NCBI GenBank assembly: GCA_963753065.1
Contig: CAVWAQ010000001.1
Span: 195,736-259,735, forward strand
Length of the DNA: 64,000 bases
From: Candidatus Bathyarchaeota archaeon
GTDB taxonomy: Archaea; Thermoproteota; Bathyarchaeia; 40CM-2-53-6
Direction of reading: 5' to 3'
Below are positions 15,934 through 50,739 of the stretch, one piece after another. The translations under genes were made by a program, and so were the position numbers. Under the pieces are notes generated by a model, which saw nothing but the letters and a program-made list of their open reading frames with translations, made no database searches and had not been told where the DNA came from. The first letter of the stretch is position 1. Each line of letters starts with the position of its first letter.

Positions 15934-17028
15934 TCACTCCGGCGGGAGAGGAGGCTGCCGTGCTCCGCAGTTGGGGCAGAAGACCGCGAGGATGATCAAC
16001 GGTGCTCCACAGTTCACACAGTATCTGGTCCCTCGCGCAGGTTGACGAGGTGGAGACGGACCTCCCGAAATCTGAGAAGCAGGAGGAATGGTCGGCCCCA
16101 CGGGACTAGGGCCCTGTGGACCGCGCGTCCTATCCGCGTAGATAACGAAGAGCAATACTGTGAAGAAAGCCGAGAGCAACGCGGAGATCACGTAGTACAC
16201 AATATTGTTGGCCCGGAACATCAATCCCAGCAGGCGTCCGCCATTCGTGTAGATGTCCGGTCTGGTCAGTTCCGAATACGAGAAACTCGGCCAGACGAAT
16301 GATGCAATCCAAGCTGTGACCATCGAAGCGACTCCGGAGATGACAATGTAGCCTATCATCGTAGCCAAGTTCTTCCTCACGAAGGCGAAACTCGACCTGA
16401 TCGATTTCACTATTCCAAGATCGTCCATCACGAGGGCCTGCATCCACGGCAGAAGAAAGACGAAGAGAACGAGTTCGACCAGTCCAACCACTAGTACGAT
16501 CCCGAGCAATCCAAAGATGATTGGGGCAAGTAAGCTGACGATGGAAGTGGGGGTGAGCTCTTCCGGAGGAGTCAGCTGCCCAATATTGAGGGTGAGAACG
16601 CTCGTCACTACAGCCACTATTCCGACAGCCACTGGAACAGCAAGTATGACTCCGACTAGTATTCGGCCGCCGAGGATCCGCAGGAAATACTTCTTGGCCC
16701 CTACCCATAGGTCAGCGAGTTCCGTTCGTCCGTCGACAACCACGCGCTTGTTCATATATGCCCACCCGGCAGTGACGAACGTATCGAAGAGGAAGATCCC
16801 GATCAAGAGGAGGAGCATTCCTCCAACTGCCGTTTGAATGAGCCCCCAAGTGTCCCCGGTTAGACCGTATGCCACTATGAGCGGGAGTAGCAAGAACGCC
16901 ATCACAGTCATGATGACAAGGGGTAAAACAACCTGAATCAAGATCGGCGGCACGATCAGCATCCAGTTCTTCCTTATTCGTGCTGCGGATTGCCTGATCA
17001 GGGTTCTTAGATCCATCTGCCTCGCCAC
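15934..17028 (-). CDS. polytopic membrane protein with a C-terminal zinc ribbon
   Basis: Multiple hydrophobic helices followed by a Pro-rich linker and YCVNCGAPL...FCPNCGA. Confidence 0.5.
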   Translation of the reverse strand: MARQMDLRTLIRQSAARIRKNWMLIVPPILIQVVLPLVIMTVMAFLLLPLIVAYGLTGDTWGLIQTAVGGMLLLLIGIFLFDTFVTAGWAYMNKRVVVDGRTELADLWVGAKKYFLRILGGRILVGVILAVPVAVGIVAVVTSVLTLNIGQLTPPEELTPTSIVSLLAPIIFGLLGIVLVVGLVELVLFVFLLPWMQALVMDDLGIVKSIRSSFAFVRKNLATMIGYIVISGVASMVTAWIASFVWPSFSYSELTRPDIYTNGGRLLGLMFRANNIVYYVISALLSAFFTVLLFVIYADRTRGPQGPSPVGPTIPPASQISGGPSPPRQPARGTRYCVNCGAPLIILAVFCPNCGARQPPLPPE

Positions 17029-31125: not shown

Positions 31126-31806
31126 TCATGAATAGAATAGCAAGAACACGATGCTTGTGATCGTGATCGCCACGATCAGCCCTGCCACCGCTTGGTTCGG
31201 TGTGTGTGCGCACAATTTCAATCTTGCCCACACCATGAGAACGGAAAGCGAATAGAGAGGGGCAACCCATATGCCGAACACAAGGACCAGCGCGGTGGTG
31301 GGTCCCGCTATCCCAGCGGTATGAGCGCTTATCTTCCAGCCGAGTGTTATCAGGCACATAGCCAGACCCACACAGAGGTACGCAACTGCCATCACAAACA
31401 TGAGTTTGTTATTGAGGACAAGAAAAGTCGCAATCCCCATGGCATAGCCGATCAACCCAAGAGCGTACAGCGGTACACGTTTCGTGGGATCCGAGACATC
31501 CAGATCCGTTCTACCGGTCATTTTGCTATACAGCACCGGTACGAATGGTGCTAGGCACAATGTGACGATGCCGACAAACGCTGACGACAACGGATTCATC
31601 AGCGGTCCTAATCCGACCGGGGAGAACCAAGAGAACACGATCGAAATGATGGCCGCGACACCGAATGGTGTGAATATTCCTGAGAATATCTCGGCCGCCC
31701 TAGTTTCCCAGCTCACTCGCAGTCTCACCATTGTCTCATGCCGATCAGGGAATTTGTGTAACCCATTCAGAGATCGATGGCAAGTGCTGGTTGCATGATG
31801 TCTCAA
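31126..31806 (-). CDS. integral membrane protein, divergent PAP2-like phosphatase (candidate)
   Basis: About 6 TM helices. KISAHTAG and ARLKLCAHTPNQAVAG loosely resemble PAP2 motifs C2/C3 (PSGH / SRxxxxxHxxxD). Confidence 0.35.
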   Translation of the reverse strand: MRHHATSTCHRSLNGLHKFPDRHETMVRLRVSWETRAAEIFSGIFTPFGVAAIISIVFSWFSPVGLGPLMNPLSSAFVGIVTLCLAPFVPVLYSKMTGRTDLDVSDPTKRVPLYALGLIGYAMGIATFLVLNNKLMFVMAVAYLCVGLAMCLITLGWKISAHTAGIAGPTTALVLVFGIWVAPLYSLSVLMVWARLKLCAHTPNQAVAGLIVAITITSIVFLLFYS

Positions 31807-32903
31807 AGACCCAACTGGTGCCTCACGGAGGCGACGGTCTTCGAGTCCGGCATCTCGGCTGATGCGCCGGTGATTATGACGTGATCCAGTCTTCCTCCTC
31901 GTGCGACTGGAAAGTGCACGAAAGGAACATAGTACTGCGTCAACTCCTCGATGTGAAACGTGTTGCTCAGGATCTGTTTGGATTCCTCTGGCATTTTCAC
32001 GAGCTTGTCTCGCAGTCTTTGCACGACTGTCTCCTTAGTCTCCCTCGAGGCTGCGATTCTTGATAGCGTTCCTTCAACATTGAGATCAGCGATGTCGAAT
32101 ATACGACGACTCTTCCATCTGCTGGGTAGTACCTCGTCAAGCATGTCGCCTTCTCGCCCATCTGAAGTCACGTACATCTCGGCTCGTCCATGTCTCAGCG
32201 CGAGTTCGGTCACATCCTTGAGATTGAAGTATCTTTTTTCACCCATGAAAAGCCTGGAGAATCGTTTCAGTGTGCGTCTCAACGTGTCCGGAACATCCTC
32301 GCTTTCTTGTTCTTCTATCATGAGGTCACGTGTCTCTCCATCAACCTCGACTGCGACAACGTCCTTGTCTACTCGAATGCTGTAGTTTGCGTTCCTTAGA
32401 TAGAAGCATTCATGATAACCCTTCAGGTGCCATAATGGAAAATAGACTATGGTAGGGGGCCCGGCGAGCTTGGACATCGCAGATACGGGTCTGAACAAGT
32501 CTGCTAGGCGTTGAAGGATCCCCGGTTTGATTGCTTTCCTAGCAAGCCTATCAAGAGGTTGTGGTATGACCCTCACGCCAGTCTCGACAATCCTCGATGG
32601 ATCCCATCCATTTCCTTGACGAGGACCTGGCATCTCTTTGGCTAGCTCGTCGAGTGTGCGTAGTTTCTCAAGCTTGGAAGCTATCTGAGCTCGCATGTCT
32701 TCGCGTTCAGTCAAACGATTTGTCCGCCCTTCGTTGAATCTCGGACCCGGTATCTCAGTTGCTGTCAGATCAGATATGAGACCCAAAGATAAGTCTGCCA
32801 CAGAGCGACCCATCTGAAGCTCGCCTGGCACGTTTTGATACCGAGCTTGAGACACAACAATACACATCACGGCTAGGCATGCAGAAATAGCTGAAAAGAT
32901 CAA
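31803..32903 (-). CDS. hypothetical protein with an N-terminal membrane anchor
   Basis: 366-aa ORF whose 4-nt overlap with the downstream membrane protein suggests an operon. No recognisable motif. Confidence 0.4.
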   Translation of the reverse strand: MIFSAISACLAVMCIVVSQARYQNVPGELQMGRSVADLSLGLISDLTATEIPGPRFNEGRTNRLTEREDMRAQIASKLEKLRTLDELAKEMPGPRQGNGWDPSRIVETGVRVIPQPLDRLARKAIKPGILQRLADLFRPVSAMSKLAGPPTIVYFPLWHLKGYHECFYLRNANYSIRVDKDVVAVEVDGETRDLMIEEQESEDVPDTLRRTLKRFSRLFMGEKRYFNLKDVTELALRHGRAEMYVTSDGREGDMLDEVLPSRWKSRRIFDIADLNVEGTLSRIAASRETKETVVQRLRDKLVKMPEESKQILSNTFHIEELTQYYVPFVHFPVARGGRLDHVIITGASAEMPDSKTVASVRHQLGL

Positions 32904-36114: not shown

Positions 36115-37713
36115 ATGGTCAATCTGGAGAATCGTCAGATGCAGTCGCCATTAGGCGCCCAATACGTCCATGAGGAGCATCCCAGACTTGCGAAGGGAGA
36201 TGTCCTGCTGAGGGCAGATAAGGTCGTGAAGGGATTCCCAGGGGTATGGGAGAATCTGATACTCGACGAAGTTGACTTCGATGTGAAATCCGGAGAAATC
36301 CATGTAGTACTGGGGGAGAACGGTGCAGGGAAGACGGTCCTGGCTAACGTTCTCTCCGGATTCTACTCTGCATCGCGCGGACGGATCTACATCCGAGGAA
36401 AGCCTGTTACGATAAACTCCCCAGAAGATGCGCTTAGACTCGGCGTAGCAATGGTCCACCAAGAGTTTACGCTTGTGCGACCTCTCACAGTCGCGGAAAA
36501 CGTTGCTCTCGGCCTGAAGAAGAACAGTTTCTCCTTTCCAATACGTGAGGTAGAACGGAAACTGAACGAGCTGTCTGTGAAGTACAATCTGAAAGTCGAT
36601 TCCAAGGCGAGAGTTGCGGATCTTTCAGTTGGGGAACAGCAACGCGCCGAGATACTCAAAGTCCTCTATCACGATCCTGACGTAATCATACTAGACGAGC
36701 CCACCTCGGTACTAGCACCCACGGAATCTCAGCAGTTGTTTTCGATCCTTCGCGGACTCGCAGATGAGGGGAAAGGCGTCATTCTCATCACGCACAAGAT
36801 GGAGGATGTGATGCGTAACAGCGATCGGGTGACAGTTCTCAAGCTGGGCAAGCTGTCGGGGACCAAGAACACCTCTGAAACGAATGAACAGGAACTTGTC
36901 AGAATGATGATAGGTCCCGAGGTGCCGGTTCTGCCAAGGGTTCGGCCGTCCTCCAAAGGCCAAGTCGCGCTTGACATCAGCGAACTGCGGGTTCTGGGTG
37001 GGGAAGGAGAACCCGCCGTCAGAGGCGCCTCCCTCACTGTACACGAGGGTGAGATCTTGGGTATTGCGGGCGTTGCGGGGAACGGCCAAACTGAGCTGGT
37101 AGAAGCAATAACCGGCCTACGCAACGCGGTCGGCGGGAAGATAGTAATCCTAGGTCAAGACATGACCAACCACTCGCCGAAAGAAATCGCAATGCTCGGA
37201 GTCAGCAACATTCCAGAGGAACGAAGGAGGACAGGAACCGCCGAGGGACTCCCCCTCATGGAGAACCTTATGATGAAAGATTATCGCCAATCTCCATTCT
37301 CAAAAGCCGGATTCCTCAATATCCCGGTGATCAAGGAACACTGTAGGAAGCTGGTGTCCGAGTTTGAGATCCTGACTCCTGATCTTGAGAAGACTGAGGC
37401 AAGGATACTCTCGGGCGGAAACATCCAGAGAATGATCCTCGCAAGGGAGTTATGGAAAGAACCGCGCCTAGTGGTCGCATCGCATCCAACATACGGACTT
37501 GACCTCAGAGCCATCGAACACACACACCGGCTCCTGCTGAAATTGAGAGAGAAAGGCTCCGCGATCCTGCTGGTCTCAGAAGATCTGGACGAGATCATGG
37601 CGCTCAGCGACCGAATCGCAGTCATGTTCAATGGGAAGATAGTCGGAATCAAAGAATCCGGAGAGACGAACATGCAGGAAATCGGTCTCATGATGGCAGG
37701 GGCAACAAACTAG
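36115..37713 (+). CDS. ABC transporter ATP-binding protein, duplicated ATPase (BMP/sugar-nucleoside type)
   Basis: Walker A GENGAGKT, signature LSVGEQQR, Walker B IILDEPT, and a second degenerate cassette (LSGGNIQR). Confidence 0.9.
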   Translation: MVNLENRQMQSPLGAQYVHEEHPRLAKGDVLLRADKVVKGFPGVWENLILDEVDFDVKSGEIHVVLGENGAGKTVLANVLSGFYSASRGRIYIRGKPVTINSPEDALRLGVAMVHQEFTLVRPLTVAENVALGLKKNSFSFPIREVERKLNELSVKYNLKVDSKARVADLSVGEQQRAEILKVLYHDPDVIILDEPTSVLAPTESQQLFSILRGLADEGKGVILITHKMEDVMRNSDRVTVLKLGKLSGTKNTSETNEQELVRMMIGPEVPVLPRVRPSSKGQVALDISELRVLGGEGEPAVRGASLTVHEGEILGIAGVAGNGQTELVEAITGLRNAVGGKIVILGQDMTNHSPKEIAMLGVSNIPEERRRTGTAEGLPLMENLMMKDYRQSPFSKAGFLNIPVIKEHCRKLVSEFEILTPDLEKTEARILSGGNIQRMILARELWKEPRLVVASHPTYGLDLRAIEHTHRLLLKLREKGSAILLVSEDLDEIMALSDRIAVMFNGKIVGIKESGETNMQEIGLMMAGATN

Positions 37714-37811
37714 GTTAGTTAGGTAACTTCATCTCAGGTTCATCTTAAATATCACTTGCTCGGACACCCGGCATGGTAGGCCTTCTGCCTATCAAGGTCA
37801 TGTGAGAAAAA

Positions 37812-39146
37812 ATGAGAAAAACTTCTAGCATGTTACGACATATGTCTAGCAAATCAGCAATTACAAGAATACAAGCAATCATAATCGTTGTGGTCGTCGT
37901 GTTAGCTGCTGCAGGCGCCGCCGCCTACTACTTCACGATGCCTCAATTTGGGTGCCCCAGTGGTTCTCGTTGCATTGCCATCGTATCCGACACGGGCGGA
38001 CGCGGGGACCTTTCGTTCAACGACATGGCATTCAAGGGCGGAGAAGCGGCACAAACGGACTTCGGAGTCAAGATGCTGGCACTAATCAGCAGAACAGAGG
38101 CCGACTACATTCCCAACCTCGAAACTGCAGCAAAGGATCCTGGGGTGATACTTATCGTTGGTGTCGGCTATTTGTTGGCTGATGCGATAAACGCTACTGC
38201 AAGAAAATACCCGGACAAGAACTTTGTTATCATCGACTCCGCTGTCCCAGGTCTTCCCAATCTGATGAGCATACTTTTCGAGGAGCACAAGTCAAGCGCA
38301 ATCATTGGCGCGATTGCAGCGTTGACTGCTGCTGCGTTCGGCTATCATCGCATTGGTGTTGTCCTCGGTATTGAGATCCCAGTGCTTTGGAAGTTCGAGA
38401 TCGGCTACAAGTGGGGAGCTGACTGGGCACTGAAGTGGTATCAGAACAAGTTCGGCAAGAGTGCACCGGTCATCGGAGATACTCCGGTGAAAGAGAGAGT
38501 CCTATACACCTACACAGGCAGCTTCAGTGATGTCACGAAGGGGTATGAAGCCGCAAAGCCGATGTTCGTTCGTGATGCGGCCCATGACGCCGGGGTTGTC
38601 TATAACGTGGCGGGCCTGACCGGCTTGGGCATCAACCAAGCCGTTCAGGAGATAGCTGCTGCTAACAACTTGACAATGGGCCCCCCCTTCATGATGGGGG
38701 TCGATTCTGACCAAGATTGGATCAATCCAGGCTTCATCCTCGCCAGCGCAATGAAACGTGTTGACACAGGAGTCCACTTTGCTACTCAGCTAGTTACACA
38801 GGGCACCTTCCGACAGGTTGTAGCATCCACTGGCGGAGTAGTCACTCTGGGAATTGGAACCACCGTAAACGGTGTCCCGGTTCAAGGAGTATCCGTGAGC
38901 ACTTTGGCCGATTTGGATGAATTCATTCAAATGGGAGTCAACGCCGAGAAACTAACAGGAAAGACAGTGCTTACAATGCCTGCCGACCAGATCAAGGCCA
39001 AAGTTGCGGCTATGAGAAACTCTGTGCCGAGCTGGGTGTGGGATGGAGCGAACGAGCTGCAAAACGAGATCAACCAAAACCCCAACCTCGTACCGCTCGC
39101 TATGACGAAGGACGCAGTGGACCAATGGAGAGCCACCTTAGGATAG
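37812..39146 (+). CDS. BMP-family (basic membrane protein / PnrA-like) substrate-binding protein
   Basis: N-terminal TM/signal anchor, then SDTGGRGDLSFNDMAFKG and a periplasmic-binding fold pattern typical of nucleoside-binding BMP proteins. Confidence 0.8.
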   Translation: MRKTSSMLRHMSSKSAITRIQAIIIVVVVVLAAAGAAAYYFTMPQFGCPSGSRCIAIVSDTGGRGDLSFNDMAFKGGEAAQTDFGVKMLALISRTEADYIPNLETAAKDPGVILIVGVGYLLADAINATARKYPDKNFVIIDSAVPGLPNLMSILFEEHKSSAIIGAIAALTAAAFGYHRIGVVLGIEIPVLWKFEIGYKWGADWALKWYQNKFGKSAPVIGDTPVKERVLYTYTGSFSDVTKGYEAAKPMFVRDAAHDAGVVYNVAGLTGLGINQAVQEIAAANNLTMGPPFMMGVDSDQDWINPGFILASAMKRVDTGVHFATQLVTQGTFRQVVASTGGVVTLGIGTTVNGVPVQGVSVSTLADLDEFIQMGVNAEKLTGKTVLTMPADQIKAKVAAMRNSVPSWVWDGANELQNEINQNPNLVPLAMTKDAVDQWRATLG

Positions 39147-39164
39147 TGGCGCTCCAGTCCTCCC

Positions 39165-39173
39165 TTTTTTTTT
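39165..39173 (+). terminator. oligo-T tract (T9) just after the BMP binding-protein gene
   Basis: TCCC-TTTTTTTTT starts 19 nt after the stop codon. Archaeal RNAP terminates at oligo-T, so this is a possible intra-operon attenuator ahead of the permease genes. Confidence 0.4.
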
Positions 39174-39245
39174 GAGAGAACCTTCAAAGTCAGGGCCGAG
39201 ACGTTTGATCCAACTTGTGACGAGTAAGTAGTACCGGGTAACAAG

Positions 39246-40286
39246 ATGAGCGAGCGCTTGGCTGCAACATTTCGCAAGACTGGCGAGTCCGGAATCGCCG
39301 TGGTGATAGGGCTTGTTGCAGGAGCTTTCCTCATGCTGGTTTTCGGCTATAACCCTATCCGAGCATACCTAGCCCTGTTTCTCGGCGCTTTTGGAAGCAT
39401 TTCAGGCATCTTGGAAACTCTTGCGTTCGCGACCCCTCTCATGGTGACCGCTGTCACCTTCGCGGTCGGAGTGAGAGCTTCTCTCTTCAACATAGGAGCA
39501 GAGGGACAAATGTATCTTGGGGCAATCGGGGCTGTAATCGTTGGCGGTACATTGACACTACCGGCAGGGCTGCATCCGATAGCTGCGACAATCTTCGCCA
39601 TGTGTCTTGGAGCTCTATGGGCTTTGCCAGCAGCCATTCTCAAGATTTGGAGAGGAGTTCACGAGGTTGTGTCCACAATCATGCTGAATTATATCGCTTT
39701 CTGGTTGGTGACTTGGCTGGTGACCTACCAATTCGGGGAACCCGGAAGAGCAGAAAGAGCAACACCAGCACTACCGACAGCACGTTACCCCGTAATTGGG
39801 GAAACATTGACTTCCGTGATTTTTGTGGTTGTAATCTTCTGCATCGCGGTCGCCGTGCTTCTTTGGCGGACTGGAATAGGTTTTGAGCTTAGACTCGTAG
39901 GAGACAACCCTGAAGCAGCGAAGTACGCAGGGGCAAGCAGGAGCCGAGCCATCCTTGTGAGCTTTCTGGTTGGCGGCATGGCCGCTGGCCTAGCAGGTGC
40001 AAGTCAGGTTGTCGGACGGCCTCCATCTTGGACTCTCTATGCAACTCTCGGTAATCTTGTGAATCTGGGCTTCGACGGCATTGGCGTGGCCTTAATTGGA
40101 AGAAACCACCCTGTCGGCGGAATCTTTGCGGCAATATTCTACGGGGGGCTCCAGCACGGTGGCAGGTACATGGAGTATAATGCAGGGGTCCCATCGGAAT
40201 TAGTCAGCGCAATTAACGGAGTAATCGTGATGACCCTCGCGATACCCGAGATAGTCACGATCATAAGGAGACATCGCGAGTCTTGA
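39246..40286 (+). CDS. ABC transporter permease (BMP/ribose-type)
   Basis: Polytopic protein. FNIGAEGQMYLGA and LVGDNPEAAKYAG are typical of this permease family. Confidence 0.85.
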   Translation: MSERLAATFRKTGESGIAVVIGLVAGAFLMLVFGYNPIRAYLALFLGAFGSISGILETLAFATPLMVTAVTFAVGVRASLFNIGAEGQMYLGAIGAVIVGGTLTLPAGLHPIAATIFAMCLGALWALPAAILKIWRGVHEVVSTIMLNYIAFWLVTWLVTYQFGEPGRAERATPALPTARYPVIGETLTSVIFVVVIFCIAVAVLLWRTGIGFELRLVGDNPEAAKYAGASRSRAILVSFLVGGMAAGLAGASQVVGRPPSWTLYATLGNLVNLGFDGIGVALIGRNHPVGGIFAAIFYGGLQHGGRYMEYNAGVPSELVSAINGVIVMTLAIPEIVTIIRRHRES

Positions 40287-41269
40287 TGGCATCTCGGAGA
40301 ATTCAAGTGTACCTTGTCGGAATCGCGTTGACTTTGACTTTGCTCTACGTGGTTTCCCTGGCCGGATTCAGCGTTCTTAGCTTGATCGAGACGGGGCTGT
40401 TGGCTATGACGCCTCTAGCGTTGGCTGCGGTGGGCGAGTGTCTCAACGAGCAAGCGGGCACTATCAACGTGGGGATGGAAGGCATTTTTCTGATCACTGC
40501 TATCCTAGGCGTCTATTGGGCGGAGGTATTCAGGAGTGGGCTTTATGGCATCTTGCTTGGTTCCGCGACTGGCGCCTTGATAAGTCTTGTATTTGCACTG
40601 ATGTCTGTCTACGGCAAGGCAAACCAGGTCATAGCCGGAATGGGACTAAACATACTGGCCCTCGGGCTGGGTCCATTCTTGCTAATGGCGATCTGGTCAT
40701 TTCCTGGCATCCATGTGTTCCCCCACGGGTTGGTCCTTCAGTCAATACAGCTGGGTGTGGGAAACGCGCATTTGGCCATCAGTCCCGTGACGATCGCTGC
40801 GATATTGATTGCCATTCTTGCGTATCTGCTCCTAAACAGAACCCTGTTAGGAATCAGAATAAGGGCTGCAGGTGAGAACCCCATAGCAGTCGATGTAGCT
40901 GGAGTCAGCGTCGGTCGCATCAGGATACTGATGTGTGTTCTGGGTGGGGCGCTTGCGGGGTTGGGAGGAGCCTTCATGTCACTGGGTTGGTTCGGTGTTG
41001 TGGTTAAGGAGATCTCCGCGGGAAGAGGTTTCATAGCCCTGGCAGCTGTGGTCTTCGCAGGTTTAGACCCCCTGCTGGCGCTGGCCGGCTCATTCATATT
41101 CGGTTTCTCAGAGGGTGTTGCCTTCACTGTTGCAATCTCTCCAAGCGTAAGGCAAGTCGTCTATTTTGTGCATATGATCCCATACGTTGTCACGTTGCTG
41201 ATCCTCGCCGCTGCAATTGGCGGAAAGAAGTTCCCACGCGCGCTGGGCAAACCATATGTGAGAGAGTAG
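40283..41269 (+). CDS. ABC transporter permease (second subunit)
   Basis: Polytopic protein with INVGMEGIFL and RAAGENPIAVDVAG. It overlaps the preceding stop. Confidence 0.85.
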   Translation: MMASRRIQVYLVGIALTLTLLYVVSLAGFSVLSLIETGLLAMTPLALAAVGECLNEQAGTINVGMEGIFLITAILGVYWAEVFRSGLYGILLGSATGALISLVFALMSVYGKANQVIAGMGLNILALGLGPFLLMAIWSFPGIHVFPHGLVLQSIQLGVGNAHLAISPVTIAAILIAILAYLLLNRTLLGIRIRAAGENPIAVDVAGVSVGRIRILMCVLGGALAGLGGAFMSLGWFGVVVKEISAGRGFIALAAVVFAGLDPLLALAGSFIFGFSEGVAFTVAISPSVRQVVYFVHMIPYVVTLLILAAAIGGKKFPRALGKPYVRE

Positions 41270-41330: not shown

Positions 41331-43616
41331 TCAAGAGAGCGAGTATACGGTTCTCTTCTCTATCGTCCGCTTCTTGCCCTCAGGCCACATCCCAAGAGGG
41401 ATGTACGTAGCCGATGATCGCCCGTAATGCGTGACATTATCTGATGCGCATGAATTGCAGGTCGTGAGCAGTCCCTTCATGACTCGATTACAGTTCTTGC
41501 AGAACGAGTACACTCCCGAGTACGCAATGAACCGGAGACCATTAGCAGCCGCTTCGCGCGTCAGGGACAGTAGTGTATCCGCAGTCACCTTGGAGTCCAC
41601 AGTAATCAAGGTCAAATGGCCGCCGGGGGTTAGGGTCTGCAGCATTCCTTCTATCGAGAGTCTTTCACCGAATGGGATCTTTGAAGTCAGAGGCACACCC
41701 GGTAGGTCGGTATAGAACGGGTAGTTTCTGCCGCCTTGGGCGGAGACAGTGCTCTTGCCGTAGTGCTCCACGTCAAGCTCGGCTAGTCTTGATGTGGCAT
41801 CATCTCCAGGCCTTTCCGATAGCACAACGCGCATTCCGAGGTTCTCAGAGGCGGCCTCGGTTTGTTTCTTCAGCTCCTGGAGGACCTTCTCAGCGAAAGC
41901 TAGCGAGTCCTTCTTCAACTCGCTTCCAGTGTGTGCGAGGCAAGCCTCATTCAGTCCGAGAATCGCCACCGCATAGGTAGCCGTCTTCTCACGAAGGTAT
42001 GGTGTGCCTTGCCCGGATCCAAGCAGCAACGGGAGTGTGGCTTGTTTCAGCCTATCGACCATGAATCTCCGCTTGATCTTGAAAGCTTCGAGCGTCAGGG
42101 CAAGTATGTCGGTCATTGACTTGAACAGCCTATCATCGTCTCTCCGCGCCTCATAGGCAAGTCGTGGCAGGTTGAGAAAGATCGTTGCCATACAACCTGT
42201 CCTATAGCAATCTGCCTCCCATTGCTTCCCCCAATCATCTGTAAGCCTCAGCCCCGTGGCCGTGTAACAGTCTCGCGAATTGTCTGGAAGTAACGCCATG
42301 TATGGTAGCATCCGAGATGCAGCAAGCTCATGAGTCTTGAGAACGCGAGATCGAATCTCCTCCTTTCCTTCGGCTGAGTCCCGAATCTTGAAGATCAGCC
42401 TCGGACTCACCAACGGATTGATCAATGCCTCTTGCGAGGTCACTTCGAGCAGGGCATCAAGAACCATGCCTGCTTCTTTATGATAATCAGCATAGACGCC
42501 CACAGTTCGACCTTCTGGTCCTATCGCCTCGACGTTCTCTAGGAACTCAGGTACTGCATATTCGAGGCCAAGAGATAGTCCGGGTTGAGGGGCGCCTAAT
42601 GGCAGGTCCTGTCCTACGGATGAAAGAAAGAGTGCCACTGATTCTTTGACCGAGTCTTCTGGTGTGTGCTCGACGTAGGGCGATAGGAAGACGTTGAATA
42701 GGTCGAAGCATTGTTCCCCTGATATCTCGGCGATTCCGAGACGGTAGACGTTCTGAATCATTGCCAAAGCTGCGTTGAAGCTTTGCGGCGGTCTGAGACC
42801 GACAAGTCCGTTCTTCAGGAAGTATCGGAGATCATGTTGTATCTCGCTTGGTTTTAGCGGCCAACTCTCAAGGTCGGATATGTGGATCTGGCCCGAGATG
42901 TGTGCGTCCGCTATCTCGCGCGGCAAGCACTCCAGAAGCACGTACTCCCCTAAGACAGAAGCTCCGGCGGTTCTCTGAACGTAGTCGGTTGCCAGTCCGA
43001 GTTCGCCCGTGGAGCGGAGAAGCTGGGTTACATCGTACACCGGCATCCCGACGCGTGTCAGTTTGTGTCTGTACTCTTCGAGTTTCTTCTCGATCAGGAT
43101 GGCGTTCACGAATTCCCGGATCAGAGCCGCGGTCAAGTAAGAAGTCCTGAGCTTAATCAGACGATCTTCCGCTTCTGCTGCTATCTCATCTGCAAGCTCC
43201 TGAGGGACTCCAGCTTCAACAACCAGCGACTTGGATATCTTGCTTCTGTGGAAGTCCTCTATCGCGAGCCGTGAGGTTCTGACGAATAGTCTACCGCGCT
43301 TCACACTGACATATTCTTCGAGGTCTCGTGCGAAATGCACTACCATCTCGCCTAGTTCGGTTATCTCATACTTCTTCGTACGCTTGTCCGAACTGATCAA
43401 ACCAGCTTCGGCAAGGCTTCGGAGGTGGTACACGAACTTTCCAGCGTCACGTACAGGATCCAACTTCAGAGATGACATGATCTCTGTGTACGGCAACGCG
43501 CCTTTCGTAGAGAGAAGGCGAAGTACTTGCATACGCAGCGGAGCGGACGCTGCATCGAACACGGCGGCTCCTAGCTTCTCAACGGAACGGAGCATGACGC
43601 AGACAGTGTGCACCAA
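41331..43616 (-). CDS. wHTH + ATP-cone + class III ribonucleotide reductase (NrdD)-like protein with substituted radical residues
   Basis: N-terminal ArsR-like wHTH, then an ATP-cone-like segment, then the NrdD body (HISGQIHISDLE, ATIFLNLPRLA, FYTDLPG, CKNC..CNSC). The expected MGCR reads TGLR and RxxGY reads RSSATY. The start may be ATG 43595. Confidence 0.7.
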   Translation of the reverse strand: MVHTVCVMLRSVEKLGAAVFDAASAPLRMQVLRLLSTKGALPYTEIMSSLKLDPVRDAGKFVYHLRSLAEAGLISSDKRTKKYEITELGEMVVHFARDLEEYVSVKRGRLFVRTSRLAIEDFHRSKISKSLVVEAGVPQELADEIAAEAEDRLIKLRTSYLTAALIREFVNAILIEKKLEEYRHKLTRVGMPVYDVTQLLRSTGELGLATDYVQRTAGASVLGEYVLLECLPREIADAHISGQIHISDLESWPLKPSEIQHDLRYFLKNGLVGLRPPQSFNAALAMIQNVYRLGIAEISGEQCFDLFNVFLSPYVEHTPEDSVKESVALFLSSVGQDLPLGAPQPGLSLGLEYAVPEFLENVEAIGPEGRTVGVYADYHKEAGMVLDALLEVTSQEALINPLVSPRLIFKIRDSAEGKEEIRSRVLKTHELAASRMLPYMALLPDNSRDCYTATGLRLTDDWGKQWEADCYRTGCMATIFLNLPRLAYEARRDDDRLFKSMTDILALTLEAFKIKRRFMVDRLKQATLPLLLGSGQGTPYLREKTATYAVAILGLNEACLAHTGSELKKDSLAFAEKVLQELKKQTEAASENLGMRVVLSERPGDDATSRLAELDVEHYGKSTVSAQGGRNYPFYTDLPGVPLTSKIPFGERLSIEGMLQTLTPGGHLTLITVDSKVTADTLLSLTREAAANGLRFIAYSGVYSFCKNCNRVMKGLLTTCNSCASDNVTHYGRSSATYIPLGMWPEGKKRTIEKRTVYSLS

Positions 43617-43619
43617 TAG

Positions 43620-43628
43620 TTTAAAAAA
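43620..43628 (-). promoter_or_regulatory. TATA-box-like element upstream of the NrdD-like gene (shared divergent intergenic region)
   Basis: TTTTTTAAA on the minus strand lies about 30 nt upstream of ATG 43595, consistent with a leaderless or short-leader archaeal promoter. Confidence 0.35.
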
Positions 43629-43786
43629 CTGTAGTAATCAGCCGGGGCGTTCTCGCAGTCATCGAAGATCGTAGGGAAATACTTGGGACCTGATGATTGC
43701 GGACATTATCTTGTCTCGTCGAAGCCTACAGGAGCCCAGCGAGTGCCTTTATGTCGTGGATTTCGACGGGTATGAGGTGTGGAAGA

Positions 43787-44620
43787 ATGAGCGAGAGACT
43801 AGTTTCCGCTGTCCAACCTGAATCTGTTGAAGGGGTCCAATACCATGTCTCAGCGAAGCGAGGGCAAATAGGTCGCTACGTCTTTTTGCCTGGTGACCCG
43901 GATCGTGTGCCGAAGATAGCCAAGTTCTGGGATTCTGCCCACGAAGTGTCTTCGCACAGAGAGTACAGAATATGGTCTGGAATGATTGACGGAACGATGG
44001 TGTCTGCGTGCTCTACCGGTATCGGTTGCCCAGCTGCAGCCATCGCAGTTGAGGAGCTAAGTAGGATTGGCGCAAACACATTCATTCGAGTCGGTTCGTG
44101 CGGCTCGTTAGTGCCAGACCTCGATTGCGGAGACCTTGCCATTTCCACGGCTGCTGTTCGTCTCGACGGTACCAGCAAGCAGTACGTCACGGCTGAGTAT
44201 CCCGCTGCAGCGAGCTACGATGTCGTCCTCGCCCTGATTGAAGCTGCCGAGAAACTGGGAAAGAAGTATCGCACAGGGTACACCGCGTCGACTGACAGCT
44301 TCTATGTTGGCCAAGGCCGTCACGGCGTTGAAGGTTATCTGCCTCCAGACGCCGAGAAACTCGTTGAGAGACTTCAACAACAGCACGTAATCACAATGGA
44401 AATGGAAGCTTCCACAATCTTCACGCTCACAGGAATCTATGGATTCCGCAGTGGCTGCGTGCTTGCAGTGTACGCTAACAGGGCCACTAACAAATTCGAA
44501 GTCAGAGGGGAAGAGGACGCATGCAAAGTTGCTGTGGAAGCTGTTCGTATCCTGATCAAATGGGACTCGGATCGGCAGAGAGCCGGGAGAAGACACTGGT
44601 CACCAGGTCTCAGCTACTGA
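43787..44620 (+). CDS. nucleoside phosphorylase (PNP/UDP family, uridine phosphorylase-like)
   Basis: YVFLPGDPDRV, STGIGCPAAAIAVEEL, RVGSCGSL and EMEAS motifs. The start was taken at MSERLV. Confidence 0.8.
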   Translation: MSERLVSAVQPESVEGVQYHVSAKRGQIGRYVFLPGDPDRVPKIAKFWDSAHEVSSHREYRIWSGMIDGTMVSACSTGIGCPAAAIAVEELSRIGANTFIRVGSCGSLVPDLDCGDLAISTAAVRLDGTSKQYVTAEYPAAASYDVVLALIEAAEKLGKKYRTGYTASTDSFYVGQGRHGVEGYLPPDAEKLVERLQQQHVITMEMEASTIFTLTGIYGFRSGCVLAVYANRATNKFEVRGEEDACKVAVEAVRILIKWDSDRQRAGRRHWSPGLSY

Positions 44621-44644: not shown

Positions 44645-45308
44645 CTATTCTCTCCGGTACGAGTCCGGCCATATGATCTGTCTCAACTGGTAGAGGCTCC
44701 TGAGCCTGTAATCTGGTTCAACCTTGAGCTCGGACTGTGCCGCAACCGGTTGTAGCACAAGAGCGGTTTGTGCGCCTGCTGCTCGACCCGCTTCGACATC
44801 GTACCTGCTGTCTCCAACGTAGATGCTTTCCTTCGGGGCTACTCCGAGCTTCTTGATTGCGGTCGTGACGAGCGCTGGGTCTGGCTTGCCTTGTTCAACT
44901 TCGTTGATTCCAACTATTGCGTCGAGCAGCGCGTCCATTCCGAAATACTTGACTATCTTCATTATTCTGTCGGTTCGTGTTCGATGAGGCGACTGCTGAC
45001 CTCACTCCCCGGACTTTCATGATTCGGAGCATCCCCAAGGCTCCGTATCGTGGTTTCACCTCTAGGCGCCATGTATTCTCAAAGAGCTGACCCTTCAGCT
45101 CGACAAGTTTCCCGTATGGTCTGCTCGCCATGGTTTGAGATTAGTTGTCTGGCGATATCAACAGTCCTCAAACCAAGCCTGTCGATCACTTCTTGGTCCC
45201 GAAATTCCAAACCAAGCGTCTTTAGCGCGCCTCGCCACGATTGCAGGTGAACCCAATTCGAATCGATCAATGTTCCATCAAGGTCAAAAATGACGGCTTT
45301 GATGACAT
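44645..45308 (-). pseudogene. HAD-superfamily hydrolase (phosphatase) disrupted by several frameshifts
   Basis: HAD motif I (VIFDLDGTL) follows a stop with the ATG one nt out of frame. The middle part (EVKPRYGA...VRSAVASSN) and the C-terminal part (GKPDP...YVGDSRYDVEAG) lie in three different frames. Confidence 0.7.
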
Positions 45309-47969: not shown

Positions 47970-49661
47970 CTAAGGCTTCACGTACACTATGACTGTGTCG
48001 CTAGTCGCAGGTCCGTAGTTGCCAGAGCCCGAATAGGTTGCTTCCACGTAGTACGTTCCCGCGGTAACCGGGTGCCAAGCCAGTTCGAATGTGCCGTTCT
48101 TGGGTTCGACTGGTGCGATTGTGCTCCAAGTCTTATCATTCAGACTGTATTGCCCTGTCAGCGTGCCGTTCGAGAGCTTCTGGGACAGTCTCATTGAGAT
48201 CGTTACATTCTGTCCTAACGTCATATTGTAAGTCGAGAGCGATATCGTCAACGTGACCGGTATAGTCTGAACGAATACCTGCACAGAGTTGCTCGCGGCT
48301 GGTTCCGTCTCTCCTCTTACCCCCTGCCAGTGTGCGCTCAAGGTATGATTGCCGGCGCTTGGCGTCCAGTCATAGCTGAACTTGCCGTCTGACACGGGAA
48401 CATATGCGACGAGCTGCATTCCTGATGTTGCGTTCATAAGGTCTGCGAGAGCTATCGTGCCGTTCTCGTATGGGTTGCCTTCGCTGTCCGTGACGGTTCC
48501 CTTGATGCTCACGCTCTCTCCGAAGTTCACTCTATTCTTGTCAACGTTGAGGGTTATGACCGTTGTCTTAGGGTACAGCACCTTGTAAACTAGGACGAAG
48601 TTGTTCGATGATGTGAACACGTTGTCAAAATAGTCCGAGGTTGCTTGAGAGATCTTGACACCTGTGTTCATCATGAATCCCAAGACTGAGTTGTCGTTGA
48701 GGTTCTGCCCAGACGAGATTGTGTCGTTGGAGATGATCTTGTTGCCACTCTCCAATAGGCGATAGTAGGTGACTGTAGTACTGGAACCACCCGTGGAAGT
48801 AGTAGTAGCAGACCTTTTCTCCTGAAAGAGAATCGTTTGGCCGCCGTAGCTGGTTTGATTGGCGATCTGCACCATCCAATACCATTTCCCATCCTCGCCA
48901 GCGCCGAGGAAGCTTGGGCTGCTTGAGCTTTGCGTACGTGCGTATGTCACAAACACTACAACATAGTCCACATTGTAATTCTGCATCATCGGAACTGCAG
49001 TCGTTTCATTTCTCATGAACATTTGTGCGATCATTGCGATCTGTGTTGTGTTCTGTGTTCCGTTGTCGGCCAAGGTCTTGCGGTCGGCGAGCGCTTGAAT
49101 CCAGTAGCCATAGTCCCACCAGGCCATTACCACGGACGATTGAGGCGTGTTATCGTGAAGCCACGCAAGGGCTTCAAGCCAGTCTTGGTAATTGGTTCCC
49201 GCGCTAGGCACCACTGGTATACTTGATGTTGCGATAGTTGCTGGCGCATACGCTGCTGTAACTGCCTTCGAGAAAGCCGGTACGATTGCGATTATTAGGA
49301 TGAGAAGGATTGCGAGGCCAAATTCTCTGCCGATCTTGACGAGCCCTGGTATCCTCCGCTTCGGGAATATCACGGCCTGACGGAGTATGTCAACGGCGGG
49401 TTTGGCCATCTCGACAGTAGCGATCGCCGCAAGAATGCAAAAGGTCGGTGCCAGTATTAGGGTCAGTCGAACGAGAGATCCGGCGAAGTAGAGCGATGTT
49501 AAAGCGGCGATTGTGATGAAGATATCTGTATTGCGAAGCCTTCGAAGAACGAAGAAGAATCCGAAGAGGCCGAGGAACGTGAGCGCATTGTATTCGTAGA
49601 AGAAGGATGCCCATGTGGCGGACTGCGTGCTCGGCCACGCTCTCAACGATCGGCATGTCAA
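47970..49661 (-). CDS. aglB: oligosaccharyltransferase AglB/STT3, C-terminal fragment (catalytic WWDYG part plus Ig-like repeats)
   Basis: TWASFFYEY..., MAWWDYGYWI (WWDYG motif). It continues the upstream fragment after a 1-nt frameshift near 49626. Confidence 0.8.
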   Translation of the reverse strand: MTCRSLRAWPSTQSATWASFFYEYNALTFLGLFGFFFVLRRLRNTDIFITIAALTSLYFAGSLVRLTLILAPTFCILAAIATVEMAKPAVDILRQAVIFPKRRIPGLVKIGREFGLAILLILIIAIVPAFSKAVTAAYAPATIATSSIPVVPSAGTNYQDWLEALAWLHDNTPQSSVVMAWWDYGYWIQALADRKTLADNGTQNTTQIAMIAQMFMRNETTAVPMMQNYNVDYVVVFVTYARTQSSSSPSFLGAGEDGKWYWMVQIANQTSYGGQTILFQEKRSATTTSTGGSSTTVTYYRLLESGNKIISNDTISSGQNLNDNSVLGFMMNTGVKISQATSDYFDNVFTSSNNFVLVYKVLYPKTTVITLNVDKNRVNFGESVSIKGTVTDSEGNPYENGTIALADLMNATSGMQLVAYVPVSDGKFSYDWTPSAGNHTLSAHWQGVRGETEPAASNSVQVFVQTIPVTLTISLSTYNMTLGQNVTISMRLSQKLSNGTLTGQYSLNDKTWSTIAPVEPKNGTFELAWHPVTAGTYYVEATYSGSGNYGPATSDTVIVYVKP

Positions 49662-50739
49662 GCTTGGCGAAGGGGTTAACGGTTGATAGGAATTTGCCGC
49701 TTGGTAGCACCATTATCTTCAGCGTGACAAGAGCATATGTCAGCCCGACAAGGACTACTGATACGCCAATGAGCGCGTAGGCACGGTGCCTCCAAGTGGG
49801 GAGCATACCGCCGGCTTCGCGCGCAAGCAGAAGAATAAGGACGCCCGGAATGACCAAGAAGTCTAGGCCTAGCAGCGATCCGAATCCCATCTTCGGGATC
49901 GCAAGCGGTGCGAGGAATAAGAAGGCGCCGTACGTCACTGAGTAGGAAAGCAGGAGCTGACGCGTGTACCTGCCAGCCACAACAAGAGCTGCGACGTACA
50001 GCACTATCAGGTCCATGGGGTAGTAGGAAGCTGCCCATGCTGCAGTCAAATAGAACAGCAATAGGCCCGCAAGCACTGAATACCCGATCGTTCCTCTCAT
50101 GCCTCGCCCTTTCTGATTCGCGCGAAGGAAGAAGAGGAAGATCAGAACCATCAGCAGTATCCCAAGAGGCTCATGACGCAGAAAGCCCAGCGTAGTACGA
50201 CTGATGTTGCTTGGATTAAGCGCCATGAACAATGCAGCCAACAGGCCTGCGCCACGTCCCCATAGGTCCTTCCCGAGGAAGTAGGAGGCTAGTGACGTAA
50301 GGGCGCCCGCAACGACGGGAAACAACACCGCAACTTCGAACACAGTGGTGTTTACCCCAATCGCTCGTAGAAACTCGTAGACGGCTGCCACGGTGAACGC
50401 GACGCCATACAGGTTACCATACTCCATGGTCATTCCCCAAGGGTACCAGCTCAGCGTGTCGTGCCAGCTGAACCATGCAAGGAAGCCGTTCTTCACAATG
50501 TACTCGGACATTCGCCACTGGAGATACGGATCAAACTCTGACAAGTAGAAGCCGAATCGGAGGGGCAGAAGACGAACTGCCAACGCCACTACAAACATGA
50601 GCGACAGGACGAGGACCTCCAGAAGGCGTCCTCGTGAGATCGTGGAAGCCCCCTTGCGAATCGCACGCATTCTGCTTGCCAAGACCTCTCTGCCGACATA
50701 TGGCCCAAGAGCGGATTGTAGTCGTTTGAAACGTGGCAA
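49390..50739 (-). CDS. aglB: oligosaccharyltransferase AglB/STT3, N-terminal membrane fragment
   Basis: 13-TM-type region with YLSEFDPYLQWR (first DxD-like loop). Homology ends at ...PIVESVAEH, and the tail after that is out-of-frame sequence. Confidence 0.8.
   Translation of the reverse strand: MPRFKRLQSALGPYVGREVLASRMRAIRKGASTISRGRLLEVLVLSLMFVVALAVRLLPLRFGFYLSEFDPYLQWRMSEYIVKNGFLAWFSWHDTLSWYPWGMTMEYGNLYGVAFTVAAVYEFLRAIGVNTTVFEVAVLFPVVAGALTSLASYFLGKDLWGRGAGLLAALFMALNPSNISRTTLGFLRHEPLGILLMVLIFLFFLRANQKGRGMRGTIGYSVLAGLLLFYLTAAWAASYYPMDLIVLYVAALVVAGRYTRQLLLSYSVTYGAFLFLAPLAIPKMGFGSLLGLDFLVIPGVLILLLAREAGGMLPTWRHRAYALIGVSVVLVGLTYALVTLKIMVLPSGKFLSTVNPFAKLDMPIVESVAEHAVRHMGILLLRIQCAHVPRPLRILLRSSKASQYRYLHHNRRFNIALLRRISRSTDPNTGTDLLHSCGDRYCRDGQTRR

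Follow-up and report, generated by a model that had tools for sequence, protein, structure and literature searches.

A candidate nucleotide-responsive transcription factor derived from class III ribonucleotide reductase in Bathyarchaeia and Nitrososphaeria

A gene on the minus strand of a 64,000-nucleotide stretch of DNA from a Candidatus Bathyarchaeota archaeon (GenBank assembly GCA_963753065.1, contig CAVWAQ010000001.1, positions 195,736 to 259,735) encodes a protein in which a winged helix-turn-helix (wHTH) and an ATP-cone are fused to the body of NrdD, the class III ribonucleotide reductase (RNR). The whole stretch is referred to as the window in the following, and positions are counted from its first nucleotide. 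The protein is likely to be a nucleotide-responsive transcription factor for nucleotide metabolism, which derives from an archaeal class III RNR and is itself non-catalytic. A first-pass annotation, made from the letters of the window, had suggested that an enzyme was repurposed as a regulator here, and this suggestion is supported by purifying selection on the wHTH and the ATP-cone, by the presence of family members in ammonia oxidizers, by synteny and by a conserved promoter element.

Gene and domain architecture

The gene and the domains of its product were assigned as follows:

41331..43595, minus strand: coding sequence for wHTH, ATP-cone and a presumably dead NrdD body; probable start codon M8 (ATG 43593-43595), TGA stop codon at 41331-41333
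43317..43565, minus strand: ArsR/SmtB-type wHTH, amino acids (aa) 18-100; recognition helix around DAGKFVYHLRSL
43047..43286, minus strand: ATP-cone, aa 111-190; the region of the K-R dyad reads V-R-T-S-R
41517..42971, minus strand: NrdD-like ten-stranded barrel core, predicted to be non-catalytic, aa 216-700
41448..41501, minus strand: Cys4 zinc ribbon with the cysteines (Cys) C706, C709, C720 and C723

The open reading frame (ORF) of 761 codons at 41331..43616 on the minus strand, on which the first-pass annotation was based, is present and uninterrupted; its mechanical start, however, is a TTG at position 43616, and this part of the earlier description has probably to be corrected. M8 (ATG 43593-43595) is the probable start of translation because nearly all homologs begin at aa 8 of the window protein (MLRS...) and because a TATA-containing promoter element ends 23 nucleotides (nt) 5' of this ATG. 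The peptide strings quoted at the time are all found in the translation, and a frameshift hidden at the C-terminus is ruled out, as the C-terminus aligns with the end of real NrdDs.

That the N-terminus combines an ArsR-like wHTH with an ATP-cone is borne out by Pfam, by a profile comparison with PDB structures and by diverse family members, 22 of 22 of which match the ATP-cone (best E=2.4e-11). The Pfam model DUF7347, a wHTH, is matched with 31.9-35 bits, compared to a gathering score of 27.6, and weaker matches to HTH_20, HTH_5 and HTH_45 cover the same domain. The solved structures that are nearest to the N-terminal profile are ArsR (6j05), NmtR and HlyU, and also CzrA. In the AlphaFold2 (AF2) model, which was built from 92 homologs and has a mean predicted local distance difference test score (pLDDT) of 84.3 and a predicted template modeling score (pTM) of 0.74, the domain reaches a pLDDT of 85-91 and adopts a helix-helix-helix-wing topology. 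Furthermore, an alignment of 92 sequences shows little or no variation in the recognition-helix region DAGKFVYHLRSL. The N-terminal domain is thus a wHTH of the DNA-binding type, which can be expected to bind DNA. The ATP-cone model PF03477 is matched at aa 112-182 with 21.5 bits when the full-length protein is scanned, which is below the gathering score of 25.8, whereas the isolated N-terminus scores 28.8 bits and lies above it. The cone is 42% identical (33/79) to that of the intact NrdD encoded next to the family gene in locus L002, which likewise reads VRTSR.

The near-complete NrdD body with its C-terminal zinc ribbon, which had been recognized by eye, is matched by the Pfam model NRDD (PF13597) practically from end to end (E=7.5e-70, aa 220-758 against positions 19-562 of the 562 model positions). 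The NrdD equivalog model TIGR02487 gives 259.7 bits, which is under its cut-off of 326.35, while the intact paralog of locus L002 reaches 552.6 bits. A structure prediction had been proposed as a check of the assignment: with the AF2 model as query, Foldseek returned class III RNRs of P. copri, S. thermophilus, T. maritima and phage T4 as top matches (E values down to 5e-28, template modeling scores of 0.6-0.76), and other glycyl-radical enzymes rank far lower. The four cysteines of the zinc ribbon are invariant in 78 of 78 orthologs and are also kept in the homologs of Nitrososphaeria.

Loss of the radical residues and degradation of substrate-contacting motifs

Four sites of the NrdD body differ from those of the working enzyme:

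42243..42269, minus strand: former Cys-radical finger loop CYTATGLRL, aa 450-458; L456 at 42249-42251
42843..42845, minus strand: E258, in the column of the second active-site Cys (T4 C79) according to profile alignment and BLASTP
41334..41435, minus strand: remnant of the glycyl-radical domain, aa 728-761; A736 at 41409-41411
42867..42890, minus strand: QIHISDLE, degraded HxHD motif; H245 is kept and the second His is replaced by S247 (alignments)

The first-pass annotation had proposed that the thiyl-radical Cys and the radical glycine (Gly) are replaced by Leu and Ala, and the registers of the hidden Markov model (HMM) and profile alignments indeed put L456 and A736 in the catalytic columns. 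In the family-profile alignment, L456 stands opposite T4 C290, with SATGLRL placed under PMGCRSF of the T4 enzyme (1h78) and MGCRSF of 9d3x. A736 is found opposite the radical Gly, with GRSSAT under MRIVGY of T. maritima and QRITGY of P. copri, and Gly is absent from this column and from the adjoining positions of the window protein (RSSATY). The third residue, E258 (KPSEIQHD), is aligned with T4 C79 (TNCCLVD), at a position where the intact Bathyarchaeial NrdD carries a Cys. A BLASTP comparison with the intact NrdD of locus L002, which carries SQCCRII, RITGYY and RPFCQGHD and is 31% identical to the window protein across 679 residues including the ATP-cone, independently places E258 at the Cys and A736 at the Gly. 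In the AF2 model, residues 450-458 and 728-740 form hairpins, at the tips of which L456 and A736 are located.

A census of 78 orthologs extends these replacements to the family. The thiyl-Cys column contains L in 52 sequences, C in nine, P in six and other residues in 11, and the preceding G455 is invariant. The second-Cys column never contains a Cys (E 56, I 8, V 7, others 7), and the radical-Gly column is variable (A 27, G 18, Y 17, S 12). Thus, the homolog survey that had been proposed reveals a conserved family in which the fusion goes along with L as the majority residue at the former Cys (52/78) and A as the most frequent one at the former Gly (27/78).

Two further candidate residues were rejected. 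C450, which is set against the catalytic Cys in the BLASTP register, varies among the orthologs (S 27, T 16, C 12, others), and the HMM registers favor L456. The column of T4 N311, considered as an additional lost residue, is variable in the family (C, S or N), and Ser is also found there in the intact NrdDs of Bathyarchaeia and T. maritima.

The HxHD motif, which contacts the triphosphate of the substrate, and the NxN flap are two substrate-contacting features of NrdD (PMC11226230). The former is degraded in the window protein, and no counterpart of the NxN flap was found: the region aligned with NAN of the intact L002 paralog reads GEL, is variable and has a low pLDDT. Other motifs of the pocket are retained and invariant in the alignment, namely H245, H261-D262, NLPR (482-485), RPGD (602-605), YTD (635-637) and GGH (665-667), of which RPGD is aligned with the substrate-phosphate loop TPAE of P. 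copri NrdD. The specificity-site stretch of the latter enzyme (E290, N298, loop 2) was left unaligned by the profile searches. The invariant core motifs would fit a nucleotide pocket that has been retained, and the protein is almost certainly non-catalytic.

Distribution of the family and selection

A search with the full-length protein returned 960 homologs, and the best 120 of these mostly combine DUF7347 with NRDD and have lengths of around 750-810 aa, with a few exceptions that are shorter or in which NRDD alone is matched. A scan with one genome per species identified 93 relatives with 40-95% identity, nearly all of which are encoded by metagenome-assembled genomes (MAGs) of Bathyarchaeia. 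When the N-terminal module (aa 8-192) was compared to 1.84 billion cluster representatives, 619 matches with E<=0.001 were obtained, 250 of them with E<=1e-10. Most of the best 150 of the 619 matches are located in proteins of 580-800 aa and the shorter ones look like fragments, so the module appears to be essentially always fused to an NrdD-like body.

More distant members are encoded by Nitrososphaerales, Ca. Nitrosocaldus, Ca. Nitrosocosmicus, Nitrosopumilus and the cultured Conexivisphaera calida (WP_174447857.1), and a single Nitrososphaeria member used as query retrieved 3951 proteins at E<=1e-20. The Nitrososphaeria proteins end just past the zinc ribbon, have a more eroded barrel and lack both the GCR motif and the glycyl-radical tail. 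Ammonia oxidizers are aerobes. Since an oxygen-labile glycyl-radical reductase is implausible in these organisms, the presence of family members there argues that the role of the family is not catalysis.

In the deepest soil clade (L058-L076, MAGs of Bathyarchaeota BA_x, 40-42% identity), some members keep a Cys (SSDGCMF) and a Gly (AKYAGRL or AKLGGRL) at the catalytic columns. The Cys column is occupied by F, P or N in their sister sequences, and the second-Cys column reads V or I. The Cys and Gly residues look like relics of a stepwise loss of catalysis, which would have followed the fusion to the wHTH.

The distribution of constraint along the protein was determined from mean pairwise identities among 75 distinct Bathyarchaeial orthologs. 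The ATP-cone has the highest identity of all segments (0.75), followed by the wHTH with 0.68, whereas the barrel core (0.34-0.51), the finger loop (0.38) and the glycyl-radical remnant (0.40) have lower values. Constraint has shifted, and the ex-catalytic loops are among the least conserved parts of the protein. Compared to the relative in locus L006, which is 95% identical, the ratio of nonsynonymous to synonymous substitution rates (dN/dS) is 0.10 overall, 0.01 for wHTH and ATP-cone and 0.145 for the core (0.08-0.15). The gene is under strong purifying selection, with a constraint that is around tenfold tighter on the wHTH and the cone than on the barrel, which is itself still constrained.

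These data bear on two other explanations. It is very improbable that the protein is a working RNR or another glycyl-radical enzyme with an extra wHTH, or a bifunctional enzyme and autoregulator that operates perhaps via C450, C470 or C475. A glycyl radical cannot be stored, as Gly is missing from the radical column and its direct neighbours; C450, despite its placement against the catalytic Cys of the intact NrdD by BLASTP, is unconserved, the second-Cys column is devoid of Cys and the registers agree on L456. The full-length NrdD fold, the intact zinc ribbon and the pocket motifs that are kept would be expected of an enzyme, and so would the Cys and Gly retained by some members of the deepest soil clade; however, the catalytic loops belong to the least conserved parts, the homologs of ammonia oxidizers lack the whole Gly-radical tail and the TIGR02487 score is under the cut-off. 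In addition, no RNR, NrdG or radical S-adenosylmethionine (SAM) activase was found among the scanned window ORFs of at least 180 aa. Pseudogene decay or an error of the assembly can practically be dismissed: other genes of the window (HAD hydrolase, AglB and PolB) contain apparent frameshifts, but the 761 codons of this ORF are read without interruption and align colinearly with hundreds of homologs, dN/dS is around 0.1 and the promoter is conserved.

The members are named inconsistently in databases, as 'anaerobic ribonucleoside-triphosphate reductase', 'helix-turn-helix domain-containing protein' or 'DUF7347 domain-containing protein'. The statement of the first-pass annotation that no such family has been described holds for the literature, as neither full-text searches nor papers on RNR phylogeny and NrdR contained an account of this family or of an RNR-derived regulator. 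It needs to be qualified with respect to databases: Pfam lists the wHTH, and only this part, as a domain of unknown function, DUF7347, and the automatic annotation of JGI sometimes reads 'anaerobic ribonucleoside-triphosphate reductase/predicted transcriptional regulator'.

Genomic neighbourhood

The surroundings of the family gene were analyzed by tblastn across the fetched loci, 85 of which were scanned for pyrB and pyrI. pyrB is located 0-3.5 kb downstream, usually in convergent orientation, in 54 of the 85 loci, and pyrI is present in 40. An intact NrdD is encoded directly 3' on the same strand, at a distance of 0.2-0.3 kb, in L002, L003, L024, L032, L041 and L054; L002 and L003 are one place from two assemblies. 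Further arrangements, as well as the neighbours in the window itself, are the following:

L080, deep Bathyarchaeial lineage: family gene, followed by a class I/II-type RNR
L087, Ca. Nitrosocaldus: family gene, followed by a class I/II-type RNR with ATP-cone, a small wHTH gene, pyrB and pyrI
L088, Nitrososphaerales: family gene, followed by an intein-containing class I/II-type RNR and pyrB
L089, Nitrosocosmicus-like: family gene, followed by a class I/II-type RNR and pyrB
L091, very divergent member of 791 aa: pyrB 48 nt upstream of the family gene
Window, 43787..44620, plus strand: uridine phosphorylase, divergent; start uncertain, mechanical ORF from 43697
Window, 36115..41269, plus strand: nucleoside-type ABC transporter operon, convergent; ATPase, Bmp/PnrA-like binding protein and two permeases

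The uridine phosphorylase was identified by TIGR01718 (287.9 bits, cut-off 280.3) and the transporter by the Pfam models ABC_tran, Bmp and, twice, BPD_transp_2. The gene is divergent from uridine phosphorylase in the window and in seven close relatives, in most of which the convergent transporter is present, too. All recurrent neighbours are nucleotide-metabolism genes and the accompanying RNR is of either type, which favors a connection through regulation over a structural partnership.

Several additional genes recur in these loci. Two conserved genes (162 aa and around 250 aa) without Pfam or NCBIfam match lie between the family gene and pyrB in L001 (12281-13543 and 9329-9846), L004 and about 20 other loci, and a small HEAT-repeat gene (around 182 aa) is divergent from the family gene in about 20 Bathyarchaeial loci; these three genes may be part of the same functional unit. 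A stand-alone wHTH gene (HTH_45, 90-135 aa) is found between RNR or family gene and pyrB or pyrI in L087 (14915-15187) and L004 (14690-15097) and could encode a second regulator of this neighbourhood. The RNR next to the family gene in L088 (12270-15719) contains an intein (Intein_splicing and LAGLIDADG_3) and a TSCPD domain. In L086 (around 9845-9920), a stretch that resembles a tRNA gene was noticed by eye 5' of the Conexivisphaera calida ortholog.

The conserved promoter element

One element precedes the gene:

43619..43635, minus strand: conserved promoter element ACTACAGTTTTTTAAAC, with a TATA-like T6AAA that is directly preceded by an ACTACA box; the distance from its end to the ATG at 43595 is 23 nt

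The alignment of upstream regions revealed a 17-nt consensus, ACTMYANTTTTTTAAAC, which lies upstream of the start and over the TATA box in most Bathyarchaeial orthologs. Anchored on the T run, it was recovered in 62 orthologous promoters at a distance of 10-73 nt (mostly 31-63 nt) from the start, and the orthologs that bear it span 40-96% protein identity. The full consensus is present without mismatch in 34 of 85 loci, once per locus and always at the family gene. Within the 64-kb window, the element is the sole match with two or fewer mismatches, where 0.02 would be expected; other promoters of the window have ordinary CTTATATA or CTTAAATA boxes. A scan of 1.32 Mb of loci and the window with a position weight matrix (PWM) gave high scores (24-33 bits) at the genes' own promoters only.

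The short distance to the ATG suggests that the mRNA may be leaderless. The element is probably a core promoter, which is overlapped by a candidate autoregulatory operator, and RNR promoters would be probable further targets. Less similar versions of the box are found at the promoters of the intact nrdD genes in L002 and L024, where it reads AGTACAC-TATTTTATACAGA, and at the RNR promoter of L080, which contains AACTACATTTTTTTCTACATTTTTGTAG; L032 appears similar to L002 and L024 by eye. A metagenome scan with an exact 18-mer variant returned 120 stretches, of which at least 48 lie upstream of a homolog and the rest are chance matches in low-GC sequence; no new target gene was recognized among the 120. 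In the loci of Nitrososphaeria, the Bathyarchaeial element is not conserved, and no convincing words common to the family gene's own promoter and the RNR promoter were found.

Two loci of Nitrososphaeria contain repeats of their own. In L089 (9996-10128), ATCAATTTATTTG is repeated three times in tandem in the promoter of the class I/II-type RNR, and a perfect palindrome of 24 nt, TATATCAATGTATACATTGATATA, comes after the repeats; the arrangement resembles an operator array. In L088 (9957-10000), two copies of TAAACCCTAAAACA are spaced 31 nt apart just 5' of the family gene, and a third copy of the shorter core AAACCCTAAAAC is located inside pyrB at 16433.

The same observations have to be held against the explanation that the protein is neither catalytic nor transcriptional and supports RNR or pyrimidine enzymes as a scaffold or allosteric partner, or acts as a nucleotide buffer or chaperone, with a wHTH that serves for protein contacts or binds the nucleoid non-specifically. 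The close synteny with RNR and pyrBI fits a physical partnership equally well, no second DNA target of the conserved element turned up and, as NrdD cores dimerize, a heterodimer with the real NrdD is conceivable where a locus encodes both. A conserved heterodimer is unlikely, however, given that the neighbouring RNR is of class III or of class I/II type depending on the lineage; moreover, the wHTH is of the DNA-binding ArsR/SmtB type, has a near-invariant recognition helix and a dN/dS of around 0.01, and a gene-specific conserved element is located exactly at the promoter. A role outside transcription is therefore rather unlikely.

Proposed mechanism

The reading as a nucleotide-responsive transcription factor can be put into the following model. 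The protein would dimerize through its NrdD core, as NrdDs do. Its ATP-cone would read the nucleotide pool by discriminating ATP from dATP, and ribo- and deoxyribonucleoside triphosphates, (d)NTPs, would probably also be read in the former substrate and specificity sites of the dead core. By analogy to NrdR and to RNRs with an ATP-cone, the bound nucleotide may alter conformation or oligomeric state (PMC9110341, PMC11226230), and the signal would be converted into DNA binding or release via the ArsR-type wHTH. The protein would act on its own promoter through the ACTACA-T6-AAAC element across the TATA box, in relatives also on the adjacent RNR and perhaps on pyrBI, and in the clade of the window perhaps on the flanking genes for uridine phosphorylase and the nucleoside transporter. 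The location of the site across the TATA box suggests repression rather than activation.

It is tempting to go further, and there is about an even chance that the family acts as a master regulator of DNA-precursor supply throughout Bathyarchaeia and Nitrososphaeria, including the globally abundant ammonia oxidizers. Three reused nucleotide sites, namely the ATP-cone, the specificity site and the former active site, would then read the ATP/dATP ratio and the balance of dNTPs, and the wHTH would act on the promoters of RNR, whatever its class in the host, of pyrimidine synthesis or salvage genes and of the gene itself. The family would then provide the first case of an RNR that was turned into a transcription factor.

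A number of observations weigh against the proposed function. The neighbourhood with RNR and pyrB is lost in the clade to which the window belongs (73-96% identity), neither RNR nor pyrB adjoins the gene in L086 (Conexivisphaera) and L090, and pyrB is mostly convergent with it, which indicates linkage and not co-transcription. The PWM scan found no site at pyrB, pyrI, the uridine phosphorylase gene udp or the transporter, and the matches at the RNR promoters of L002, L024 and L080 are weak (11-15, compared to around 30 at the genes' own sites); the element could simply be an unusually conserved core promoter. On the side of the protein, the canonical basic dyad of the cone, VxKRDG, is unrecognizable and the region reads FVRTSR, which may be a lineage trait since the intact NrdD of L002 has the same motif, and the former active site may be incapable of binding nucleotides, given that both the HxHD motif and the NxN flap are degraded.

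It also has to be considered that the protein is a transcription factor whose NrdD body serves as a dimerization scaffold and whose signal is redox state, a metal sensed by the zinc ribbon or Cys residues, or oxygen. The relatives of the wHTH in the ArsR/SmtB family typically sense metals or redox state, no set of Cys residues other than the Cys4 ribbon is absolutely conserved and the K-R dyad of the cone is atypical. Such a signal is nevertheless quite improbable: the ATP-cone is the most conserved segment of the protein (identity of 0.75 and, together with the wHTH, a dN/dS of around 0.01), all conserved neighbours are genes of nucleotide metabolism and the RPGD, YTD and GGH motifs are invariant.

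Other features of the window

The window also encodes rpL44e, aIF2-alpha, RNA polymerase B and A', PCNA, primase and RadA. Together with the closest relatives, which are named Bathyarchaeia, these genes identify the organism as a member of this group. The gene for a HAD-family hydrolase at 44645-45270 on the minus strand is interrupted and reads as overlapping ORFs of 105, 78 and 63 aa in different frames, while it is intact with 235 aa at the same place in L006 (8266-8973); it is either a recent pseudogene or the result of indel errors in the assembly. The oligosaccharyltransferase AglB/STT3 at 47970-50739 (minus strand) appears to be split into two overlapping ORFs, 49390-50739, which comprises the N-terminal part of STT3, and 47970-49661 with the AglB core and a Big_3_5 Ig-like domain, which may reflect another frameshift. 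A family B DNA polymerase at 58763-61053 (plus strand) is apparently split as well, into 58763-60169 and 60148-61053, and Pfam finds partial DNA_pol_B and exonuclease domains in the first part. Three ORFs of 226, 366 and 367 aa at 31126-32903 (minus strand) and 57466-58569 (plus strand) have no Pfam match at E<=1e-5. At 62468-63766 (plus strand), a Fae (formaldehyde-activating enzyme) domain is fused to a domain of the OMPdecase/HUMPS type.

Significance

The control of RNR expression in archaea is largely open, and the family provides a concrete candidate with thousands of sequences in Bathyarchaeia and ammonia-oxidizing archaea. It would also be a case of an ancient radical enzyme that was turned into a sensor and for which intermediates are still visible, namely the apparent relic Cys and Gly residues in the soil clade and the loss of the radical domain in Nitrososphaeria. 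On the practical side, GenBank, RefSeq and IMG label many members as 'anaerobic ribonucleoside-triphosphate reductase', which is a systematic annotation error: anaerobic dNTP synthesis can be falsely assumed when metabolism is reconstructed, also for aerobic ammonia oxidizers. Cultured hosts such as Conexivisphaera calida, Nitrosocosmicus and other ammonia oxidizers make biochemical studies feasible.

Comparison with known systems

With the ArsR/SmtB metalloregulators, the family shares the wHTH, which aligns with ArsR, NmtR, HlyU and CzrA and is weakly matched by HTH_20, HTH_5 and NF033788. However, the scores of the window protein are under the cut-offs (NF033788: 25.9 bits compared to 55; HTH_5: 14-18 compared to 22), and the wHTH makes up only the first 100 aa of a protein of 750 aa.

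The likeness to the class III NrdDs of T4, T. maritima and P. copri extends in homology and fold across around 650 aa, including the ATP-cone, the barrel and the Cys4 ribbon. In contrast to these enzymes, the window protein has no thiyl Cys, no second Cys and no radical Gly, its HxHD motif is degraded and the NxN flap is absent, so that it fails in five defining features; furthermore, the family is set apart by the added wHTH, a TIGR02487 score below the cut-off and members in ammonia oxidizers.

Regulators in which a helix-turn-helix or wHTH domain is fused to an inactive enzyme fold that serves as ligand sensor include MocR/GabR with an aminotransferase fold, NrtR with a Nudix fold and PurR of B. 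subtilis with a phosphoribosyltransferase fold. The family resembles these proteins in having an N-terminal DNA-binding domain, a fold of a pathway enzyme as putative metabolite sensor and a location beside genes of the pathway. The difference lies in the sensor, which would be the fold of a glycyl-radical RNR plus an ATP-cone as second sensor module.

The closest parallel in function is NrdR, the RNR-specific repressor of bacteria, which binds DNA in a nucleotide-dependent manner and is reported to be rare in archaea (PMC9110341), so that the role of an RNR regulator would otherwise be unfilled there. Both have an ATP-cone and are linked to RNR genes of different classes; autoregulation through a site that overlaps the promoter is probable for the window family, judged from its upstream regions, and the logic of nucleotide-dependent DNA binding is proposed for it by analogy. 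The architectures differ: NrdR is a protein of around 150 aa that binds DNA with an N-terminal zinc ribbon and has no NrdD barrel, whereas the window family has around 750 aa and an N-terminal ArsR-type wHTH, and its zinc ribbon is the C-terminal one of NrdD. In addition, no palindrome similar to the NrdR box was seen, and no NrdR model was among the NCBIfam matches. Outside the cone, the window protein is unrelated to NrdR, and it is a functional analogue and not a member of that family; if the proposed function is true, it would be the archaeal counterpart of bacterial NrdR.

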